Source: an uncultured Bacteroidota bacterium (lineage in GTDB: Bacteria; Bacteroidota; Bacteroidia; Chitinophagales; Chitinophagaceae). Taken from it: a stretch of DNA of 64,000 nt. Location: the NCBI GenBank assembly GCA_903927975.1, contig CAIYPC010000520.1, positions 8,588 through 72,587 of the forward strand, in the 5' to 3' direction. The notes beneath the pieces were generated by a model, which saw only the letters and a program-made list of their open reading frames with translations, made no database searches and had not been told where the DNA came from. Below, one piece after another: positions 9,959-20,144 of the stretch. Numbering within the stretch: position 1 is the first letter of the stretch; each line of letters opens with the position of its first letter. The translations under genes were made by a program, and so were the position numbers.

Positions 9959-11041
9959 TTAATTAATTGAAATGCCATCTTTCATTTCATCATTCGGGTG
10001 AAGCATCAGCTTCTCTCCTGATTTTAATAAGCCTGTGATCTCAACCTTATCAGTCGTTTCATTACCTGTTGCCACATCTACTTTACAGATCTTACCTTCT
10101 CTTATTACAATCACATATTTTCTTTCTGTAGAAGTAATAACAGCAGAACGAGGAACAGTCAATGCTTCCACATTTCCCTTTGAATACAGCTTCACATTTG
10201 CATACATGCCGGGAGAAAGTCTTCCGTTCTTATTCATCACATCCATTTCTATTCTTTCAGATCTGTATTGCGCATTGATGTTGGAAGATTTGCGGGCGAT
10301 ATTCGCTATCATCTTTTTTCCGGGCAATGCGCTCAGGTAAAAAGAAACAGTATCATTAATATTTAAGTTGATTGCAATGGCTTCTGGAATATCAGCCTGC
10401 AACCTCAATTTGTCTTCCTGTTTCAATTCAAGCATGGGCTTTCCGTTTTTATCAGAAGAGCTCACCAATGCACCGGGATGAATATTTCTTTCAGTGATGA
10501 TCCCATCAAACGGTGAGCTTACTCTTAAATAAGCAAGCATCGTTTGCTCTATTTGCCAATTTGCTTTTTCTGCATTGCATAAAGAACTATCAGAAAGCAT
10601 TTTTGATTTTGCTGTGGCAAGACTTAGCGGCGCAATGGCTCCGGCTGTTTGTGAAGCTTGTTTGAGACGCTCATAATTTTCTTTACCAATTGCATAATCA
10701 GCATTTGCGCGTTCATATTTTTCTTTCGCCTGCAACATAGTTTGAATCAGTTCAGGTGCTTCCAATTCCATTAATAACTGTCCGCGTTTCACATGCGAAC
10801 CGATATCAACCATCACTGATTTTACATAGCCATTTACCTTTGGAAAAATGCTCACTTCCTGATAAGCCGCCAACTGAGCAGGTAGATTTATATATTGTCC
10901 CACTCCTGCAGATTGCGCCTCCACCAATTCATAATGCGGCTTTTCGGCTACTGCTGTTTTATTTTCCGGGGCTTTTTCATTTGAGCAAGCACTGATGAGC
11001 ACTGCAGATAAAATAAAAATGCTTATTGATTTTTTGTTCAT
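9959..11041 (-). CDS. RND efflux periplasmic adaptor (MFP) lipoprotein
   Basis: Lipobox LISAC; VSIFPKVNGYVKSVMVDIGSHVKRGQLL, SPFDGIITERNIHPG, LSPGMYA. Confidence 0.93.
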   Translation of the reverse strand: MNKKSISIFILSAVLISACSNEKAPENKTAVAEKPHYELVEAQSAGVGQYINLPAQLAAYQEVSIFPKVNGYVKSVMVDIGSHVKRGQLLMELEAPELIQTMLQAKEKYERANADYAIGKENYERLKQASQTAGAIAPLSLATAKSKMLSDSSLCNAEKANWQIEQTMLAYLRVSSPFDGIITERNIHPGALVSSSDKNGKPMLELKQEDKLRLQADIPEAIAINLNINDTVSFYLSALPGKKMIANIARKSSNINAQYRSERIEMDVMNKNGRLSPGMYANVKLYSKGNVEALTVPRSAVITSTERKYVIVIREGKICKVDVATGNETTDKVEITGLLKSGEKLMLHPNDEMKDGISIN

Positions 11042-11049
11042 GTTCTTTT

Positions 11050-14000
11050 TTATTTAGTTGAATCTTCAGGCATTAATGAAACTGATTTGAACGATGATTT
11101 TTGTTTTACCCAACCATAAACCAATGGAACGATAAAAAGTGCAGCGAGCGTTGATGCAGCAAGACCACCAATCACAGCGCGTCCCAATGGCGCTGATTGA
11201 TCGCCTGCTTCTCCCATGCCAACTGCCATTGGGATCATGCCCGCGATCATAGCGAGGCTCGTCATTAATATTGGGCGAAGGCGCACACTCGCCGCAACAG
11301 ATGCGGCTTTAAAAGGATCTTTATATTCCAATCGCAACGCTTCTGCATTTGTAACAATTAAAATTGCGTTGGCAACTGATACACCGACTGCCATAATAAG
11401 TCCCATGTAAGATTGCAGATTGAGCGTGGCACCTGTTGCAAGTAGCATGATCAGCGAACCAAGCAATACCGCAGGAATGGTAGAGAGCACGGCAACAGAT
11501 AATGCGACAGATTGATAATTTGCAGCTAACAATAATAGGATCACAATAATGGCTGCTAACAATCCGCTTTGCAATGAGCCAAGTGTTTCAGTTAATAAAG
11601 ATGAAAGCCCTTTTATTTCAGCAACAAGCCCTTTTGGGGGCGCTCCCATTGCATCCATTTCTTTTTGCACTGCAGTTGTTGCAGTGCCCAAATCTTTCTT
11701 ATAAATATTTGCATTGATGGTAAGAAAACGGCGTGGCCCAGCGCGATCAAATTCACCCGGAAAAGAGTCAATGGAAATATCTGCAACATCAGAAAGAACA
11801 GGGCGCATTTTCCCCTGCATCACCGGAATATTTTTTAACTGATCCAACGAGTTCATCATGTATTCCGGAATCTGCACCTGTGTATTATAAGTGTATTGCT
11901 TATTATCATCGAGCCAGAGATTTTTTAATGTGAAGCGGCTCGATGCAGTTGCATCCGAAATGCTTTGCGATACGTTATCAATGCTCAATCCCATCTGTGC
12001 CATTTTCTGTCTGTCCATTTTAATAACAAGCGTAGGAAATTTCAATGGCTGTGCAACTTGAACATCTCTTAAAAAAGAAATGGTTTTCAATCTTGCCATT
12101 AATTTTTCCGAATAATTCTCGGCATCATTTATATTTTTTGATGCCACTCTTATTTCGATTGGTGTTGAAGCACCTTGTGCCATCAATTTTTCGGTAAGCT
12201 CGATTGGCTCAAAACATAAATTGACCGTTGGATATTTTTGCAGGATATTTTTTCTTAGCCTGTCTTTAAAATCATCCATGTTCACTTTATAGTTTTCCTC
12301 AAGTTGAGCTTGCAACACGGCTTCATGTGATCCACTGTTGAACACATACAAATTGCTATGTCCATAATTCGGAGAAACTGTTCCTACAAAAGCTGAAGTA
12401 ATTGAAATATGTCCTTCCGCAGTAGAGTCAATCACATCCAGCACATCTTTCACCGTTCGTTCTGTTATTTCCAAACGTGTGCCGTTTGGTTCCCGAATGC
12501 GAAGTTGCAACTGTCCTGCGTTAGATTTCGGCAGCATATCTTTTCCAATAGAAACAAAACAGAACCCTGCTAAAACAAGCGCCAGAACAACATAACTCAT
12601 CACAATCCATTTTCGGTTAGGCATCCACGTTTCCAGTCGTTTCATCAAACCCACTTTAAGCTTTTGAAAAAAACTATCTTCTTTTTCGCGCTCAACATCT
12701 TCTTTATTATGTGTTTTGATCTCTTCCACTTCTGTTGCATCGAGCGCCAATCCAGCATGTGCATGAAAGCCTGTATGATGGTATTGAAACATTTCTTCTT
12801 TCAATAACCAATTTGAAATAACAGGCACCAGTGTTTGTGCTGCCACATAAGAAATGATCATGGCAAAACCTATCGACAATGATAATGGAAGAAACATGGC
12901 TTTGGGAATACCGCTCATTACCAGTGATGGAGCGAATACTGCCAATATGCATAATAATATCAGCACCAACGGAAATGATATTTCAGTGCAGGCATCGAGT
13001 ATCGCCTGCCTTTTTGTTTTGTTCATTTCCAAATGCTGATGGATATTTTCAATGGTGACCGTTGCCTGATCCACCAGAATGCCGATAGCTAATGCAAGAC
13101 CGCTAAGTGTCATGATGTTGATGGTTTGCCCTGCAAGGTTCAACATCAATACCGCACCCAACACCGCTACAGGAATGGTGATGATTACTACAAGACTGCT
13201 TCGCCAGTCGCGCAAAAAAAGCAATACCATTAATCCGGTAAGCACTGCACCAAGAATCCCTTCCGTCATTAGGCTTTTGGCAGCGTTCATTACAAATATG
13301 CTTTGATCAAATTCATAACTGATATGAACATCATCAGGCAACAAGCTTTGCATTTCAGGCATTTCTTTGCGAAGGCCCTGAACAACATCCCAAGTTGATG
13401 CGCTTGATGTTTTTACAATTGGGAAATAAACCGAGCGCTTGCCATTCACCAAAGCATAATCCGCAACAATATCAGAAGCATCTTCAATCTTTGCGATATC
13501 TTTTGCAGTTATGGTTGTGACGCCATTTGTAGCGATTGGAATATCGCCGAAGTCTTTCACTTTTTCTTCCTGCGAATTCATTGCGGACACATACATGATG
13601 CTGTCGATTCGCACGTTTCCTGATGGAGCTACAGAATTATTTTTCCCCAACGCTTGCACCACTTGCTCTGGAGATAAATTAAATTCTCTCAATTTTTCCG
13701 GATCAACTTTTATGATTACCGATCGTGCATTGGAACCGAAAGGCGGTGGCGCAGATAATCCTGAAACCTTGCCAAACAGCGGCCGCACAAGGATTGCAGC
13801 CATATCAAATATTTCGTTGAGCGATTTTGTATTGCTGCTAAACACCAATTCACCAACGGGCAATGAAGATGCATCGAACCGAACTACTTCAGGCGGCAAT
13901 GTGCCTGTGGGAAAAAAAGCCTGACATCGATTTACTTGTATGGCTACTTCCGCAGAAGCTTCTGCCATATCTGTTCCTTCATAAAAATTCAATTTGATCA

Positions 14001-14262
14001 ATGTGAGACCTTGTATGTTTTTGCTCTCGATATTTTTTAATCCATCGATATACAAAAAATTATCCTGCATGCGCGTTGAAAAAAAACCTTCCATTTGTTT
14101 TGCAGACATGCCGCCATATTGTTGTATCACATAAATAACCGGAAGGTTCAACTTCGGAAAAATATCAATCGGTATTGTTCTAACTGCCATAATGGAAAAA
14201 AGCAGCAGACCGGTAAACAAAACCATGATAGCAACTGGTTTTTTTAAAGCTGTTTTTACCAT
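11050..14262 (-). CDS. RND efflux permease (AcrB/CusA-CzcA superfamily)
   Basis: 1070 aa; IPIDIFP, TINIMTLSGLALAIGILVD, RLRPILMTSLAMIAGMIPMA. Confidence 0.95.
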   Translation of the reverse strand: MVKTALKKPVAIMVLFTGLLLFSIMAVRTIPIDIFPKLNLPVIYVIQQYGGMSAKQMEGFFSTRMQDNFLYIDGLKNIESKNIQGLTLIKLNFYEGTDMAEASAEVAIQVNRCQAFFPTGTLPPEVVRFDASSLPVGELVFSSNTKSLNEIFDMAAILVRPLFGKVSGLSAPPPFGSNARSVIIKVDPEKLREFNLSPEQVVQALGKNNSVAPSGNVRIDSIMYVSAMNSQEEKVKDFGDIPIATNGVTTITAKDIAKIEDASDIVADYALVNGKRSVYFPIVKTSSASTWDVVQGLRKEMPEMQSLLPDDVHISYEFDQSIFVMNAAKSLMTEGILGAVLTGLMVLLFLRDWRSSLVVIITIPVAVLGAVLMLNLAGQTINIMTLSGLALAIGILVDQATVTIENIHQHLEMNKTKRQAILDACTEISFPLVLILLCILAVFAPSLVMSGIPKAMFLPLSLSIGFAMIISYVAAQTLVPVISNWLLKEEMFQYHHTGFHAHAGLALDATEVEEIKTHNKEDVEREKEDSFFQKLKVGLMKRLETWMPNRKWIVMSYVVLALVLAGFCFVSIGKDMLPKSNAGQLQLRIREPNGTRLEITERTVKDVLDVIDSTAEGHISITSAFVGTVSPNYGHSNLYVFNSGSHEAVLQAQLEENYKVNMDDFKDRLRKNILQKYPTVNLCFEPIELTEKLMAQGASTPIEIRVASKNINDAENYSEKLMARLKTISFLRDVQVAQPLKFPTLVIKMDRQKMAQMGLSIDNVSQSISDATASSRFTLKNLWLDDNKQYTYNTQVQIPEYMMNSLDQLKNIPVMQGKMRPVLSDVADISIDSFPGEFDRAGPRRFLTINANIYKKDLGTATTAVQKEMDAMGAPPKGLVAEIKGLSSLLTETLGSLQSGLLAAIIVILLLLAANYQSVALSVAVLSTIPAVLLGSLIMLLATGATLNLQSYMGLIMAVGVSVANAILIVTNAEALRLEYKDPFKAASVAASVRLRPILMTSLAMIAGMIPMAVGMGEAGDQSAPLGRAVIGGLAASTLAALFIVPLVYGWVKQKSSFKSVSLMPEDSTK

Positions 14263-14265
14263 TTA

Positions 14266-15666
14266 TTATCTTTTTATAGATTGAATGAAAAAATCAAGAT
14301 TGCCGGTTGCAGCCGCTTTATTAAGGTTCGCAACAAACCATTCATTTAATGTTTGTACATAATCTGATTGAGAAGTGTACAACACAAAAGATGCATTGGT
14401 GAGGTCAACAAGATTGATAATGCCTGCTTTGTACTGCGCTACTTTTTGCTCAAATGCATCTGATGCAGCTTGCAATTGCACGGGAAGCTCAAGCAGGTTT
14501 TTTTCAGCAACTTTCACTGAAGCATCTGCCTGCAATGCCGCAGTGCTTAATGTGAGTTTTTGTTGTTGCGTTTCATAAGCTGCAGCTTCAGTTTGATAAT
14601 GCGTTACTGCAAGCCTGTCTTTTTTGCGAATGCCATTCAACAAATCATAGGTAACTGCAATGCCTATCGCATAACTAAATCTTTGATAACCCAACCCTGT
14701 TGCGAAATCTTTGTATTCATTATTATAAGCGATACTAGAGCCGCGACCCCAACCTGCCGCTGCCAACATTATTTTAGGCAGGTACAATTTCTTCACCAAT
14801 GTTTCGGTTGATTTGAATAATGATTCCTGTTGCAGATAATAATCCGTCAATGGATTTTGCAGCGTATCCCTTATTGAATTAAAAGCAGCAGCATTTGCAG
14901 AAACATCTTTCTTCGCAGAAGTATCAATATTGATCTGTCCGGATATACCTGTGAAATAAGAAAGCTGTTGTTGCAATTGTATTATATCGCCAAGCCGCCT
15001 GTTGTAACTGATTTTTGTTTTTGATAATTCAGCTTTTGCCAAAGAAGAATCAACGCCAGCATTAATACCGCTTGTTGTGAGCGCATTGATAACATTATAA
15101 ATAGATTCATATCTTTTTATGTTCTGTTTATCAACGTCCAACTGATATTTATTTTTCAGCAGATCGAAATAGAGTTTTCCAATTTGCCATTTTATCAAAT
15201 ACACTTCTTTATCAAAATCTGCCTGCTGTAATCCAGCGAAAGCTTCAGCATTTTTGCTTCTGGCATTTTTCAACCCAAAATTTACCAGCTCATATTCTGC
15301 GTATAACGATGCTATATTCCCAGAGGCGACGCTGCTGTTATTTTGTGCATTGATGGAACCAGAAACAGAAGGGATAACGCCAAGTGGCAGATAAGAACCG
15401 GGCAATGAATTTGCAGATCCTGCCGAAAGCTCATCAGTGATTGCAAATTTTGGGATGTATGCGTGCTTTGCTTCTGTAACTCCTGCTTTCGCGCTGTTTG
15501 CCAAAGCTTCCTTTTGTAGCAAAGATGGAAAATAATGTTTCGCCGAATCAACCAAATCCAATAATGAATATAACTTATCAGTTTGCGCAAAAACAGAAGT
15601 TGCACAAACAGAAAGTAACCATATTGCGATAGCGGACTTGGTTGCTTTTTTTACAAAAACAACCAT
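14266..15666 (-). CDS. TolC-family outer membrane efflux protein
   Basis: Signal peptide; helical repeats; QYKAGIINLVDL motif; first gene of the TolC-RND-MFP operon. Confidence 0.88.
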   Translation of the reverse strand: MVVFVKKATKSAIAIWLLSVCATSVFAQTDKLYSLLDLVDSAKHYFPSLLQKEALANSAKAGVTEAKHAYIPKFAITDELSAGSANSLPGSYLPLGVIPSVSGSINAQNNSSVASGNIASLYAEYELVNFGLKNARSKNAEAFAGLQQADFDKEVYLIKWQIGKLYFDLLKNKYQLDVDKQNIKRYESIYNVINALTTSGINAGVDSSLAKAELSKTKISYNRRLGDIIQLQQQLSYFTGISGQINIDTSAKKDVSANAAAFNSIRDTLQNPLTDYYLQQESLFKSTETLVKKLYLPKIMLAAAGWGRGSSIAYNNEYKDFATGLGYQRFSYAIGIAVTYDLLNGIRKKDRLAVTHYQTEAAAYETQQQKLTLSTAALQADASVKVAEKNLLELPVQLQAASDAFEQKVAQYKAGIINLVDLTNASFVLYTSQSDYVQTLNEWFVANLNKAAATGNLDFFIQSIKR

Positions 15667-15720
15667 AAATGAATTTAATTGGAAAAAATAATGAATGTTT
15701 AACCTATCTAACGTGTATGG

Positions 15721-16125
15721 TTAAACGAAGGGCGGTCCTCTAGGAGAAAAAATATCGAAAGAGTGTGTAGCAAGAGCTGAGACAATTGTGAAAAATTCCG
15801 TGCTGGCTTCAACAGTCAACGGCACAGTTATCACAACGCGATAAAAATCGCCATCGCTTTTGCCTTTATGGTGGTAGCGCTTGTCAAGACTTAAATGTGA
15901 AGGATCATAATAACTCCCAGCGTAAGTTTTTTGCTTTTCAATTTTATTAAACTCAGATACCTGTTGAACCTTTGCGGTGATATATGCTTGATGGTGAAGG
16001 AAGAAATAGAAGTTGGCAACTACATAAAATTTGTAGCTAAATTGAATAATGAGGAAAGGCAAATATGCGAAAAGAAGCGCAAGCTTAAAGCCAATCCTCT
16101 TATACCTGTTTCTTCCAGAATGCAT
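15721..16125 (-). CDS. Small membrane-targeted ORF ending in SPRGPPFV; candidate RAPP-type arrest leader peptide
   Basis: ATG at 16125 (ORF track starts at 16137); hydrophobic KLALLFAYLPFLIIQFSY; 3' end cct aga gga ccg ccc ttc gtt taa; stop 54 nt before the tolC start. Confidence 0.65.
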   Translation of the reverse strand: MHSGRNRYKRIGFKLALLFAYLPFLIIQFSYKFYVVANFYFFLHHQAYITAKVQQVSEFNKIEKQKTYAGSYYDPSHLSLDKRYHHKGKSDGDFYRVVITVPLTVEASTEFFTIVSALATHSFDIFSPRGPPFV

Positions 16126-16175
16126 TGTAAAAAACAAAGGGGTTAATTATGCAGTTAAAATCACTGCTCAATTTT

Positions 16176-16183
16176 CAAATATA
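16176..16183 (-). promoter_or_regulatory. Bacteroidota -7 promoter element for the leader/efflux operon
   Basis: TATATTTG on the minus strand matches TAnnTTTG; no clear -33 element at canonical spacing. Confidence 0.4.
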
Positions 16184-16289: not shown

Positions 16290-19200
16290 CTATTGGTCAC
16301 TACTTTTTTTATCGTCCTTTCCTTTGTGCTTTTCTTTCTTTTTTTCAGTGCCGTTTCCATTTTTTAAATTAAAAAGAGAAGATATTAGTGGAATGACTGT
16401 ACAAAGCGTGGTTAATATCCCGGTTATTTTTTGATAGGTCTCTTGTTGGCTGATGAAAATGAAAATGCCAATGCCAGTCAACAACAGCAGTAGCGGCGTT
16501 TTGATCATTTTCCAATAATCTTGTTTCTTTGCTCTTTCCATATTTTGCACGACATCTTTATCATCGGACATTTGGAGAATATATTCGCGAAAACTTGGTG
16601 TCATCAAGCAAAGGCGCTGATCGTCAAATTTTATTATCCCCTGATTCAAAAGACGAAGTAAGATATAGTCGGCTTTGTAGTTGGTGAAACCATCTTCAGC
16701 AAAATCATATAGAATAAATTTCTGCGTTTTATCAAGCCCATTCCATATTTGTTCATAAAAAATTTTCATCAGGTCTTTCATATAAAAAACCTTTTCGTCA
16801 TTATACTTTATTAAGGCTTCTGTCTCGTATTTATAAACCGCGTTTAAATCAAGAGGCGAAGGCAATATTAAAATTGATTGAAGCGCTTTATCATTTGCAT
16901 AACGTTCTGTGATTTGCCGGAAAAAGTAATTTTTATCTAAAGTGATATTATTAGGATTCTTCTTCGTTGAATAGATCAGCCATAGATCTCTCAGGAAAAG
17001 CCGCTCCGCCAAGGAACGGCTTAAATAATAACAACCAATAGATATCAGCACAAAGACCGATAATGCAAACGCTAAAAACAAACCGGGGCTGGGTGTAAGA
17101 CAGGCAATGTCTGCTTCTAACAAATGAACGGAATTATAATTTGCCATATCATCCAAATTCAATTTAATAAAATGTGACGTATATCCATCTTGCAAGTTTT
17201 TATAAAGCAGCCTCGGCTCGTTCTGATCATCTTTTTCTGTTTGCCTAAAATACCAGGAACCATCACTTGCGGTGTATTGTGATCTCTGCCCGGTTAATGT
17301 AACGCTGTCCTCTGGAAAAAATAAACTATGCAGCCGAGTATAAGCCGGAGCAATTGATAAGGTATCCAGATCATTTTTATCGGGAGTTCGATAAACCACT
17401 GAAATGCCGTTAAGACTGTAAATGCCAAGTTGGAATTTCAAAAAATCCAGTTGGCCGCTATTGAATGCCTGCCTACCGCCATATTTATATTTAGCAGCGC
17501 GTTTATTTATTTCCAAGCCTCTTAATTGAATGCAGCGGGCAAGATAAAGTTGTTCATTATTCAATTCCAGGCTATGCTCCTGTCTGTAAATAAGGCAAAA
17601 TATTCCTACGGCAGGAATAATGCTGATCATAAAAACGCCAATCAATATAGCCCATACATATTGCCTTAGAAAAGAGGCTTCATCATTACCAGATGATTTT
17701 TTTGTAAATGAATGATAAGACCAATAGTTCAATCCTCCTGAAATAATCTGGAAGAAAAGCAGTAGCAAAAAATTTTTATGAAAATCTGGCTGGCTAAATA
17801 AGTACAGAAAGTTAAGCGTCGCTATCATCATCAATAAATACGACAGGAGTGCTTTAAACTGAAAATTGTTTGATGTAGTGCCGAGTTCTTTAAGCTCTTC
17901 GTCTGAATATTTTTTCCTGATAAGAAAGTAAAGAAGAGCTATGCTGAAGGGAAATATAAGCGTTATAAAAAACATGATAAACTCCATCTTTGGGTAACAA
18001 AATGCTGCAACTACCCAGGCTAAAATGTAGAGAAAAAACGACATCAACATAAATCTGATCAAATGCTGGTAATAATATTTTTTTTTCTGTAAAGGATAAA
18101 GCCAATCAAAGTTTAAAGAAGGCGCCTGAAGCAGGCTTCGTCTTTTCTTAAAACATTGATTCATGATACTCGAGCCAAGTACCAAGATCAAAGAAAAAAA
18201 AGTGCAGAATGCCGTTAAGCTTATCAGGTGTTCTTCATAGCTATCCGAATCGGCATTTTTATAATAAATAAGAAGCGTATATGGGAAATCTTTTATCGGG
18301 CTCGACAGAAGCGATACCTCCCTGCCCCGCAAAGTGAGGTGATCGAGAAATATAGAGCTTCTATATTTTATGCTCTGATAAAGCTTCGATGGGTTTTCGA
18401 TCCCATTGAGAAAGTTTGATAATAGCGCTCTTCCTGATTTTGAATCGTAAAGTATTTGCCCATCTCCATTTACAATACTGAAATTATAGCCTGGTGGCAA
18501 TACCGGGTTGCATACCGAATGCATTTTTGATGAAAGGCCAATTAACTTAACAGGCATATACGGGCCTGGCACCATACATTTTTGATGAAATACATATTGC
18601 CAGACATCATTATTTTGGGGGTCGCTGCGCATAATAACATTGATGATATATTCACCATCTAACTTATCTAATGTTGGCTGAATAGTAAATGTGTCTGTTG
18701 CTTTGCTAAAAGTATCGTCAATGGTCAGAAAGCGCTTTTGTACAAAATCTGTAAAATATTCCCTGCCTCTCACATCCACGAGGGGCGTTTTTCCATAATT
18801 CTTTTTATATGCGCGGGTAGCTTTTGCAATTCCTAAGGAGTCAATCCAGAATAGCTGATCCAGATAAGGGTATAATACAGGATTAAAAACATCGTCAAGT
18901 TCTGAATCGTGGAGATGTCTTTCTTTGCATGTATCGGCCTCGTATGATACGAGGCCATTTAATGGGTTATCCTCGTTTTTATAATGTCTAAAATTAGGAA
19001 CGCTTTGATCAAAAGATTTTAATTGCCTGCACATGGCCAAAATTTCTGATCTGAAATTGTCATTTACTTTTTCTGAAAGAATCTCAAGATTTGTTTTGTT
19101 TTTGTGAGTCTGGTTTTTGTCGAGAAATAATTTGAAGAGCAGAAAGAACAGCACAAAAGCGCCTATAAAATAAGTTGCTATCAGCAGCCTGATATCCATT

Positions 19201-20144
19201 GCTGTAGTTCTTTCAAGCTTGCCAAGTTTAAAAATTTTTACGATTGGAAGATATATGATGAACAGCAGCACAAGCACCGCCATAAATGTTGTGTAGCCCA
19301 AAGGGATTTCTTTATATGCTGCCGAATAATTGCTGAGGCTTATAAGTCCCGAAAGAATGATCCTTTCTTTGCCCAGTTGAAATGGATAAAGAAACAATTT
19401 ATAGGGGTTGCCTTCAATCGTTACATTTTGCACATTCAGAAGGCTGAACCCACCTTTATTTTTAAAAAGGCTATCAGTTTTCACCTGATAATCTAAAGGC
19501 AGGTTAGCCGAATTATAAATAATAATATCCTGGTTCAATTTGCCATTGTTCTTTGCATCTTTTTGATCATCCGTTTTAAGATTGATATTAAGACGACAAC
19601 TATCATATAACGATAGTCCGGAATTGTCAACTAATTTTCCGCGTATAAGAATAAAATCATTAAAAATATCTTTATAGTTAGATATCAGTTGATCAAGAAT
19701 GGAATCAAGATTTTTTGAGAGCCCAACAATTTTTGAACAGTCTTTTTTAGTGATGGAATGTACCATATAAGTCAACTGCCACTTTCTAGTCAGTTCATCT
19801 TGGGTAAGTATGGGCTGATCTACTTTATACGAATCTTTCGAGCTGGATCCTTTCCCCATGCCAGTAAACCCATTATTTGCAAAAAAATCTGTGAGCGACT
19901 CTAAATTAATTTGTTTCCCATCCTTAGCATAGTTGCTTATCGCTTGAATATAGCCTTCGTTCCTGACCGTCAAAGCTTGCTGAATTTGTGCTAGTTCACG
20001 AAATGCACTGTGATGATATTCATTTTGTTTTTCGGGAAGAAATTTTAGATAATACAAGCTTAAAACTCCCACAATACAACCCGTGATGATAGCAAAGGAT
20101 GTCAATTTAAGACGCAGAAGTTTTTTCTCAGATAGATCACTCAT
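16290..20144 (-). CDS. Large polytopic membrane protein (1284 aa) with two extracytoplasmic Cache-like regions; function unknown
   Basis: Alternating TM clusters and two long soluble regions (YNFSIVNGDGQILYDS is PAS/Cache-like); C-terminal FYEQIWNGLDKTQKFILYDFAEDG..LLRLLNQGII; no kinase or cyclase motif seen. Confidence 0.55.
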   Translation of the reverse strand: MSDLSEKKLLRLKLTSFAIITGCIVGVLSLYYLKFLPEKQNEYHHSAFRELAQIQQALTVRNEGYIQAISNYAKDGKQINLESLTDFFANNGFTGMGKGSSSKDSYKVDQPILTQDELTRKWQLTYMVHSITKKDCSKIVGLSKNLDSILDQLISNYKDIFNDFILIRGKLVDNSGLSLYDSCRLNINLKTDDQKDAKNNGKLNQDIIIYNSANLPLDYQVKTDSLFKNKGGFSLLNVQNVTIEGNPYKLFLYPFQLGKERIILSGLISLSNYSAAYKEIPLGYTTFMAVLVLLFIIYLPIVKIFKLGKLERTTAMDIRLLIATYFIGAFVLFFLLFKLFLDKNQTHKNKTNLEILSEKVNDNFRSEILAMCRQLKSFDQSVPNFRHYKNEDNPLNGLVSYEADTCKERHLHDSELDDVFNPVLYPYLDQLFWIDSLGIAKATRAYKKNYGKTPLVDVRGREYFTDFVQKRFLTIDDTFSKATDTFTIQPTLDKLDGEYIINVIMRSDPQNNDVWQYVFHQKCMVPGPYMPVKLIGLSSKMHSVCNPVLPPGYNFSIVNGDGQILYDSKSGRALLSNFLNGIENPSKLYQSIKYRSSIFLDHLTLRGREVSLLSSPIKDFPYTLLIYYKNADSDSYEEHLISLTAFCTFFSLILVLGSSIMNQCFKKRRSLLQAPSLNFDWLYPLQKKKYYYQHLIRFMLMSFFLYILAWVVAAFCYPKMEFIMFFITLIFPFSIALLYFLIRKKYSDEELKELGTTSNNFQFKALLSYLLMMIATLNFLYLFSQPDFHKNFLLLLFFQIISGGLNYWSYHSFTKKSSGNDEASFLRQYVWAILIGVFMISIIPAVGIFCLIYRQEHSLELNNEQLYLARCIQLRGLEINKRAAKYKYGGRQAFNSGQLDFLKFQLGIYSLNGISVVYRTPDKNDLDTLSIAPAYTRLHSLFFPEDSVTLTGQRSQYTASDGSWYFRQTEKDDQNEPRLLYKNLQDGYTSHFIKLNLDDMANYNSVHLLEADIACLTPSPGLFLAFALSVFVLISIGCYYLSRSLAERLFLRDLWLIYSTKKNPNNITLDKNYFFRQITERYANDKALQSILILPSPLDLNAVYKYETEALIKYNDEKVFYMKDLMKIFYEQIWNGLDKTQKFILYDFAEDGFTNYKADYILLRLLNQGIIKFDDQRLCLMTPSFREYILQMSDDKDVVQNMERAKKQDYWKMIKTPLLLLLTGIGIFIFISQQETYQKITGILTTLCTVIPLISSLFNLKNGNGTEKKKEKHKGKDDKKSSDQ

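Follow-up and report, generated by a model that had tools for sequence, protein, structure and literature searches.

The stretch considered here (called the window below) is 64,000 nucleotides of DNA from an uncultured Bacteroidota bacterium of the family Chitinophagaceae (contig CAIYPC010000520.1 of assembly GCA_903927975.1), and the subject of this report is a small open reading frame (ORF) on its minus strand that stands at the head of an efflux-pump operon (Table 1). The operon encodes a TolC-like outer-membrane factor, an RND permease, an RND periplasmic adaptor (membrane fusion protein, MFP), and an exported PepSY-like protein of 180 amino acids, called P180 below, whose start overlaps the stop of the adaptor gene. 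Every protein encoded downstream of the small ORF is exported or membrane-inserted. The predicted product of the ORF, here called the leader, is MHSGRNRYKRIGFKLALLFAYLPFLIIQFSYKFYVVANFYFFLHH...SHLSLDKRYHH...THSFDIFSPRGPPFV. It has a hydrophobic segment near its N-terminus and ends F-S-P-R-G-P-P-F-V-stop (SPRGPPFV-stop), and a gap of 54 nucleotides separates its stop codon from the start of tolC (15666, same strand). A TTG at 16137, in frame with the ATG of the leader, is an alternative start that would add four residues. The hydrophobic segment, the RGPPFV ending, and the distance to tolC had all been reported in an earlier reading of the bare sequence (the first-pass annotation), and all are found where it placed them, on the minus strand, which it left unstated. 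It was also right that the peptide has no CxxC and several histidines: cysteine is absent altogether, and the seven histidines include H77 and the pair H85-H86, adjoining a conserved motif in the middle of the peptide (the mid motif). No Pfam or NCBIfam family could be assigned to the peptide, a Pfam scan at E up to 1 returning only a sub-threshold match to YfhO.

Table 1. Features of the leader and its operon, in the order in which they are transcribed (positions are those of the window).
Feature	Positions	Strand	Description
Candidate Bacteroidota -7 promoter element	16176..16183	minus	TAtaTTTG; 51 nt 5' of the leader ATG; read by eye
Leader ORF	15721..16125	minus	ATG at 16125, TAA at 15723-15721; 134 aa + TAA
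Putative signal-anchor or export signal	16027..16095	minus	Residues about 11-33; from hydropathy, AlphaFold2 helix, and conserved pattern
Mid motif	15874..15900	minus	S-H-L-S-L-D-K-R-Y, residues 76-84; family consensus L-[D/N]-K-R-[F/Y]
Codons of the putative arrest motif	15730..15741	minus	AGA GGA CCG CCC (R129 G130 P131 P132); R, P, P invariant
Predicted hairpin H1	15698..15727	minus	GUUUAACC (15727-15720; Val134, TAA, CC) paired with GGUUAAAC (15705-15698); 14-nt loop
Single-stranded spacer	15667..15697	minus	A/U-rich, G-poor; recurrent UUCAUUUUAAA-like box (U-U-C-A-U-U-U-U-A-A-A-like) just 5' of the tolC AUG, spotted by eye across loci
Predicted hairpin H2	15639..15665	minus	11-bp stem from the U of the tolC AUG, 15665-15655 paired with 15649-15639; from folding
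TolC-like outer-membrane factor	14266..15666	minus	466 aa; Pfam OEP 9e-24; TIGR01844
RND permease	11050..14262	minus	1070 aa; ACR_tran 2e-186
RND periplasmic adaptor	9959..11041	minus	360 aa; HlyD_D23 7e-26; TIGR01730 1e-58
Exported PepSY-like protein P180	9417..9959	minus	180 aa; weak PepSY_like match, 0.0037

The RGPP ending is rare in the genome that carries it. When all ATG-to-stop ORFs of at least 80 amino acids in the 5.06-Mb assembly were counted (5487 ORFs, 1.40 million residues), RGPP was found twice, RAPP once, and RPPP not at all. Both copies of RGPP are the C-termini of paralogous leaders, each before a paralogous TolC-RND-MFP operon. The second operon (contig C451:440-6761, minus strand; locus L035) begins with a leader of 130 amino acids ending TLLRGPPSLS-stop and continues with TolC, RND, and adaptor genes, whose products are respectively 55%, 72%, and 61% identical to those of the first.

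Relatives of the leader were sought at increasing depth. A word-indexed protein search returned only two, one of them syntenic, 53% identical, and ending SPRAPPCA-stop. A profile search of 1.84 billion representatives returned 18 true relatives, all less than 50% identical to one another, and genome searches added further loci from Puia and other Chitinophagales, all of them ending in R-[G/A]-P-P (one in RPPP) followed by a short tail. The non-redundant collection amounts to 73 leaders, all from the Chitinophagaceae/Chitinophagales. The first-pass annotation had made its proposal depend on the conservation of RGPP among syntenic homologues, and the motif R-[G/A/P]-P-P is present in all 73: RGPP in 65, RAPP in 7, and RPPP in 1. 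It is the most conserved feature of the family, identity among syntenic relatives being otherwise 25-30% or less. In an alignment of 19 representatives (less than 50% mutual identity), the only invariant columns are D81, K82, R83, R129, P131, and P132. The residue before the arginine of the motif is mostly leucine (54 of the 73 leaders) or proline (9), and the tail that follows the second proline, 2 to 8 residues, is conserved in neither length nor sequence. That conservation ends exactly at the second proline matches the prediction of a ribosome stalled with the codon for that residue in its A site. The relative with RPPP (G153:C14; L018 1438-1902, minus strand) ends SSPRPPPVA-stop, has its mid motif 52 residues before the arginine, and precedes the closest orthologues of the TolC (72%) and the RND permease (82%).

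The pump itself is a better guide to the distribution of the leader than is the profile. Of 301 genomes of the taxonomic family, roughly 60 carry an orthologue of the RND permease at 58-82% identity, often in two copies, and 18 gave a match to the leader profile. The region upstream of the pump was inspected in 20 genomes with no match to the profile. TolC could be located in 19 of these, and in all 19 there is an ORF ending in RGPP plus 2 to 8 residues, 28 to 182 nucleotides 5' of TolC and usually about 40. The leader accompanies the orthologous pump wherever it was looked for, missed by the profile search. It evolves fast, little surviving beyond the export signal, the mid motif, and RGPP. 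Two of the permease orthologues (G154:C11:2408-5617 and G206:C1:1709307-1712513) match at full length except for a single in-frame TAA, which may reflect recent inactivation or a fault in the assembly.

The codons of the motif also speak to what is conserved. Across 25 loci, all six arginine codons, all four glycine codons, and all four proline codons are used. Because the codons vary freely while the residues stay, selection evidently acts on the peptide. The RGPP ending exceeds chance on four independent counts: its rarity in the genome, its presence in the detectable relatives, its presence in genomes missed by the profile, and the variation of its codons. The genes that follow are likewise kept, TolC-RND-MFP synteny extending over about 45 loci, and the distance from the predicted P-site codon to the AUG of tolC clusters at 56 to 80 nucleotides.

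A second conserved element lies in the middle of the leader. The sequence L-[D/N]-K-R-[F/Y] is found in 67 of the 73 leaders, its first residue 45 to 52 positions before the arginine of the C-terminal motif (46 to 48 in 60 of them). Three of the six leaders that lack it are of the paralogous type that stands before a PepSY-like gene. The stretch between the two motifs is unconserved in the alignment of representatives, and the distance from the signal-anchor pattern Q-x3-[KR]-F-Y (residue 28) to the same arginine varies from 75 to 139 residues. The exit tunnel of the ribosome holds about 30 to 40 residues, and L-D-K-R-Y lies 47 to 51 residues behind P131, so at a stall the mid motif would stand just past the exit port. 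The two motifs may be read together as a ruler, the position of the first mattering at the time the ribosome reaches the second. Once at the exit port, the mid motif could act by passing on or holding back a pulling force, by binding a partner, or by touching the surface of the ribosome.

Leaders ending in RGPP stand before other genes as well. In several genomes of Puia and Chitinophagales, a second kind precedes the homologue of P180 (L003/L011 511-882, L012 4859-5275, L013 4996-5331). It has the same kind of N-terminal helix, without the L-D-K-R-F motif, and the genes follow one another in the order leader-A, P180, leader-B, TolC, RND, MFP. The P180 of the window, by contrast, closes the operon and has no leader of its own. 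Family leaders (ending YSLRGPPIYT-stop and PTQRGPPSRV-stop) also lie 48 to 60 nucleotides 5' of a gene encoding an OmpR-type response regulator (L006 1438-1866, L007 1414-1851, L038 2319-3458), an arrangement found in two genomes. At L038, the gene after the regulator belongs to no family and is followed by about 2.5 kb devoid of long ORFs, offering no clue to the signal. That leaders precede a PepSY-like protein and an OmpR-type regulator, too, argues that the device is modular and not bound to one substrate.

The N-terminus of the leader has the look of a signal-anchor or export signal. Basic residues (R5, R7, K9, R10) precede the hydrophobic segment, whose mean Kyte-Doolittle hydropathy over 19 residues (11-29) is 1.93, and the N-terminal helix carries the conserved pattern Q-F-x-Y-[KR]-F-Y-x-x-A-N-F. 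In some relatives the segment resembles a cleavable signal peptide (FFFVQA/Q). The structure predicted by AlphaFold2 from the 19-sequence alignment has a mean predicted local distance difference test score (pLDDT) of 60 and a predicted template modelling score of 0.25. It is confident only in the membrane helix (pLDDT 85-95), and the stretch between the mid motif and RGPP scores 44-63. A folded domain in the exported part of the leader was considered and set aside on the strength of this model.

One might suppose that the product of the ORF is itself a small protein at work in the membrane or periplasm, perhaps as an accessory subunit of the pump or as a substrate-binding partner, in which RGPP and L-D-K-R-Y serve structure or binding and any pausing is incidental and unregulated. 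The gene is, after all, always linked to the pump, and small accessory proteins of RND pumps do exist, AcrZ among them. The conserved polar residues of the N-terminal helix (Q, N, Y, K/R) go beyond the needs of a plain signal, and the fixed spacing of about 47 residues could mean a compact fold. However, the 45 residues between the motifs are unconserved and poorly predicted, as just described, and the profile misses most orthologues through divergence, yet RGPP is kept in 19 of 19. The tail after the two prolines is free in length and sequence, the genome otherwise avoids RGPP, and paralogous leaders precede unrelated genes (for the PepSY-like protein and the OmpR-type regulator). Also, the motif varies only at its glycine, which gives way to A or P while R, P, and P stay the same, as described for arrest motifs (PMC12992588). 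We consider a working protein of this kind unlikely.

The arrest motifs in question have a recent literature. RAPP and RGPP cause robust arrest in many sequence contexts, without relief by EF-P (Fujiwara, Tsuji, Sakiyama, Niki, and Chiba, EMBO J 2025, PMC12992588). Both are depleted from proteomes and enriched near the C-termini of small exported proteins encoded upstream of diverse genes, and seven of seven such proteins from Streptomyces lividans stalled, as did CruR (PMC12992588). The main text of that paper names TonB receptors, YcnI, PCuAC, PepSY, and DsbA as downstream classes and leaves efflux, TolC, and RND unmentioned. Its supplement, though, includes 'TolC family protein' among the downstream classes that are enriched (RGPP 415 vs AGPP 79, 9.5-fold), along with RND adaptors and CusA/CzcA. 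There, too, is a protein of Niastella koreensis (NIAKO_RS20395, ...Y-N-K-R-Y...SSLRGPPAA) encoded before a TolC gene and having the layout of the window's leader family.

The window leader has the traits of this class: an R-[A/G]-P-P core, located near the C-terminus of a protein shorter than 300 amino acids, an N-terminal hydrophobic segment, a downstream gene on the same strand, and avoidance of the motif in the rest of the proteome. It resembles the TolC members of PMC12992588 in particular, these also being small proteins (less than 300 amino acids) with an export signal, RGPP or RAPP within a few residues of the stop, a TolC gene downstream on the same strand, and the motif avoided elsewhere. 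The first-pass annotation, in calling the leader an arrest peptide of a different type, therefore overstated its novelty. The TolC class differs in being listed in the supplement without assay, the assays of that paper having been made on S. lividans proteins and CruR, and it is only here that the mid motif with its constant spacing, the pair of hairpins discussed below, and the near-universal link to one orthologous pump of the Chitinophagaceae are shown. Also, that study found copper-related leaders to be lacking in the Bacteroidota, and the window leader family, unlike those leaders, is not copper-related. It is a new, undescribed family inside the published RAPP/RGPP arrest class.

Three known systems invite comparison. 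In the first, CruR of Bordetella pertussis (Bp2923, DUF2946; Roy et al. mBio 2022, PMC9426467), an exported leader likewise stands first in its operon and is followed by a gene for an outer-membrane protein. Its C-terminal R-A-P-P is needed for regulation, arrest in vitro, demonstrated afterwards, occurs with the two proline codons in the P and A sites (PMC12992588), and arrest is coupled to Rho-dependent termination (PMC9426467), with which the G-poor spacer at the window locus is compatible. The differences are that the window leader has no sequence homology to CruR, no DUF2946 match, no CXXC, and no conserved metal ligand; that the CruR operon encodes a TonB-dependent importer and the window operon an efflux pump; and that no motif at a fixed distance outside the tunnel has been reported for CruR.

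The second system, CutF of Rhodobacter capsulatus (cutFOG; Ozturk et al. mBio 2023, PMC9973294), is also co-translationally exported, has a proline-rich, stalling-like motif at its C-terminus, and is separated from the next gene by a stem-loop covering that gene's ribosome-binding site, its opening favouring downstream translation. The two hairpins at the window locus could, by analogy, play the role of this stem-loop. However, CutF senses periplasmic copper through a copper-binding motif, which the window leader lacks, and the stem-loop of cutFOG shields a Shine-Dalgarno sequence. The strong hairpin of the window lies 3' of the AUG, and by prediction a stall leaves it closed. Initiation in the Bacteroidota generally proceeds without Shine-Dalgarno pairing, and at the tolC of the window none is expected, as is usual for the phylum. 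Judged as a member of the CruR/CutF group (DUF2946, PF11162), the window leader shows no DUF2946 match (Pfam at E up to 1; NCBIfam), its family has no conserved cysteine or histidine column, and the downstream genes are probably other than those of metal homeostasis.

The third comparison is with ApdA and ApdP, of the RQH family that monitors Sec and YidC (Sakiyama 2021, PMC7897499; Fujiwara 2024, PMC10987492; Morici 2024, PMC10951233). These share with the window leader an R-A/G-P-P core with an irreplaceable arginine, an N-terminal export signal, and a variable region beside the core; there is no homology beyond the four core residues. They precede secA, secDF, or yidC and report on export capacity, whereas the window leader precedes an efflux pump. 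More generally, the downstream genes of the window encode OEP, ACR_tran, an HlyD-type adaptor, and a PepSY-like protein, with no protein-localisation component among them, which sets the leader apart from the monitoring substrates SecM, MifM, VemP, ApdA, and ApdP. In this regard, leaders of sec genes from Bacteroidota have stalled Bacillus subtilis ribosomes in vitro (PMC10987492).

Taken together, the comparative evidence (R-[G/A/P]-P-P in every relative, free choice of codons, an unconserved tail) speaks for the first-pass annotation where it proposed an RGPP-class arrest leader heading a TolC-RND-MFP operon. ORF 16125-15721 is likely to be a stalling leader of the RAPP/RGPP class, dependent on its motif and acting in cis on the TolC-RND-MFP-P180 operon. 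It might work as follows. The basic N-terminus and hydrophobic segment would target the nascent chain to the membrane, where it would be exported co-translationally. When R129-G130-P131 has been made and the codon for P132 occupies the A site, the peptide bond would fail to form and the ribosome would stall, as with the RAPP/RGPP peptides that have been tested. (That P131 would occupy the P site and P132 the A site is predicted from the toeprints of ApdA, ApdP, and CruR in PMC12992588.) At that moment, L-D-K-R-Y (residues 80-84) would lie just outside the tunnel, at the junction of ribosome and translocon, and there it may set the length of the stall, for example through a pulling force. The start of tolC is otherwise flanked by H1 and locked by an unusually strong H2. 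The stalled ribosome would cover the 5' arm of H1, including the stop codon, so that H1 would stay open and a longer single-stranded, A/U-rich landing region would lie before tolC. Such opening may raise tolC initiation in the manner of CutF. Alternatively, in the manner of CruR, the stalled ribosome may prevent Rho-dependent termination within the G-poor spacer.

Both hairpins come from folding the RNA from the leader's 3' end into the beginning of tolC. The start region of tolC in the window (-3 to +36) has a folding energy of -12.5 kcal/mol, making it the second most stable among 1491 starts of long ORFs in the genome (mean -2.58, standard deviation 2.13). This is the region of H2, which recurs with other sequences in homologous loci; its mean z-score against dinucleotide shuffles is -2.09 over 25 loci and -1.47 over 19 loci outside the discovery set. 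The hairpin at the stop codon, H1, also recurs with other sequences in many homologues (mean z-score -0.94 over the 25 loci, -1.29 over 19 further loci). With the first base of the P-site codon (15735) numbered +1, the 5' arm of H1 spans +9 to +16, which places it inside or at the edge of a stalled ribosome. Between the hairpins, the spacer has a C/(C+G) ratio of 0.65-0.70, compared with 0.51 in 268 same-strand spacers of the genome; it may be a landing region for the 30S subunit, a rut-like stretch, or both. Neither the leader nor the spacer matched Rfam at E up to 1. As an intrinsic terminator, H1 was rejected: a consensus scan flagged nothing on the minus strand, the loop is 14 nucleotides long, the stem has two G-C pairs, and the U run does not adjoin it.

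The effect of a stall was estimated by masking the footprint of the stalled ribosome in partition-function folding and comparing the result with that of mock footprints. The cost of opening the region from -35 to -1 of tolC fell on average by 2.15 kcal/mol, compared with 0.27 for the mock (in the window, it fell from 3.4 to 1.9), and the gain exceeded 1 kcal/mol in 18 of 38 loci, reaching 5 to 10 in several. A coupling like that of CutF fits in about half of the loci, because of this result for H1. A Rho-type coupling like that of CruR fits as well, since the spacer is G-poor and the tolC start is poorly accessible. Simple unmasking of the tolC start (-18 to +12) in the manner of SecM was rejected, there being no gain over the mock footprints. 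Translational unmasking is perhaps the coupling to be put first, tentatively and at somewhat less than an even chance; Rho-type polarity is possible and rather less likely than that, and some other mechanism, or both at once, takes what is left. Confidence in any particular coupling mechanism or signal is low. By sequence, the signal is probably not a metal; one may guess at a state of the envelope, of export, or of the pump substrate, acting on the exported part of the leader or on the motif at the exit port.

A number of observations weigh against a stalling leader that acts through these hairpins. H1 in the window is weak, 8 base pairs, AU-rich, with its 14-nucleotide loop, and a clear effect of it is confined to about half of the loci. 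The main lock, H2, would by prediction stay closed at a stall. Over the region -18 to +12 of tolC, the mean gain is 0.54 kcal/mol, compared with 0.44 and -0.09 for the mocks, and the value for the window goes from 12.8 to 12.7. Column-wise covariation in H2 is weak as judged in the closest subgroup, where 88.6% of cells are paired, there is one compensatory pair, and 37 of 500 shuffles reach the score. The registers of the hairpins differ among subgroups, so that for H2 no single consensus structure can be scored family-wide. Part of the signal could come from composition, U-rich codons being followed by codons for lysine and arginine. The mid motif, with its ruler-like spacing, could alternatively belong to a small folded periplasmic domain with its own function, the structure model having used 19 sequences. 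Finally, we know of no direct demonstration of RGPP arrest on Bacteroidota ribosomes.

Perhaps the stall is real and has nothing to do with regulation, serving instead the biogenesis of the leader or holding the polycistronic messenger at the membrane for the synthesis of TolC, permease, and adaptor beside the translocon. All of the downstream products are indeed exported or membrane-inserted, and the narrow test of the initiation region was, as noted, negative. The spacing, moreover, puts the conserved motif just outside the tunnel at the pause, as in pause-and-target systems of the XBP1u type. On the other side, family leaders also precede a cytoplasmic response regulator of the OmpR type, the exceptional hairpin at the tolC start points to controlled initiation, and all RAPP leaders that have been characterised are regulatory. 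This explanation strikes us as distinctly improbable.

By its best matches, the pump looks like an RND pump of the multidrug type. The permease scores 527 bits against RND_permease_2 of NCBIfam and 327 bits against CusA/CzcA. Among solved structures, its best relatives are unnamed chains called 'Efflux pump membrane transporter', MdtB, MdtF, and AcrB. The adaptor gives weak matches to barrel-sandwich models of the CusB/CzcB type. A metal substrate accordingly seems unlikely on these matches, and the suggestion in the first-pass annotation that the leader might monitor metals finds no support, the same comparison speaking against it, as do the lack of any conserved histidine or cysteine and of a DUF2946 match. 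About as doubtful as a stall serving biogenesis, or slightly more so, is a metal-sensing leader of the CruR/CutF type, whose histidines would bind metal to tune arrest while the pump exports it: the peptide of the window has its seven histidines, among them H77 and the pair H85-H86 beside the mid motif, the adaptor has its CusB/CzcB-type matches, and many TolC-linked RAPP leaders of other phyla are rich in histidine or cysteine, but no such residue is conserved family-wide (the L-N-K-R-F subgroup has I, F, W, or K in place of H77), PF11162 finds no match at E up to 1, and the permease favours the multidrug models.

The reading preferred here, a stalling leader acting in cis on the pump operon, can be carried further, to an arrest sensor with two points of contact. 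The mid motif would be a regulatory handle at the junction of exit port and translocon, setting the duration of the stall according to the state of the envelope (membrane potential, export capacity, or a pump substrate acting on the part already exported), and the stall would release the double lock of H1 and H2 on tolC. Such a sensor would be concerned with neither metals nor Sec genes and would control, in Bacteroidota, an RND pump of the multidrug type and sometimes a PepSY-like protein or a two-component regulator. We offer this fuller scheme as a tentative possibility, and on balance a doubtful one. If it is true, the coupling through RNA must differ from that of SecM or CutF, as the Bacteroidota largely lack initiation dependent on Shine-Dalgarno sequences. 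The fixed spacing of 47 residues hints at how arrest is timed or released; the motif at this distance and the exceptional hairpin at the start codon are new details that make the mechanism testable.

The surroundings of the leader can be described briefly. The candidate -7 element before it fits TAnnTTTG, which we take to be the Bacteroidota consensus; the consensus scan applied to the window covered terminators and sigma-70 promoters, the Bacteroidota -7 type lying outside its scope. Directly upstream is an ORF of 1284 amino acids (16290-20144, minus strand). Several stretches of it are hydrophobic, Pfam gave no match at E up to 0.01, and just 3' of its stop is a palindrome, TTTTTGCGCAAAAA (about 16222-16209, minus strand). 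Read-through of the leader stop to give a fusion with TolC was also considered. The two genes share a frame here (15666-15723), with one TAA, 18 sense codons, and no other stop between them. Among 21 homologous gaps, just 5 have a length divisible by three, so the shared frame is probably coincidence, and the possibility was rejected.

The regulation of RND pumps is usually credited to transcription factors of the TetR type or to two-component systems. If the leader works as proposed, then an entire lineage of orthologous pumps in the Chitinophagaceae, present in roughly a fifth of the sampled genomes, would be switched by a nascent peptide. There is a practical side to this for annotation: an unannotated ORF of about 130 amino acids that ends L-R-G-P-P-x-x just 5' of TolC is the pattern to look for, since profile searches overlook such genes. 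If the proposal is true, control by RAPP/RGPP arrest would extend to efflux of the drug type and to the Bacteroidota.

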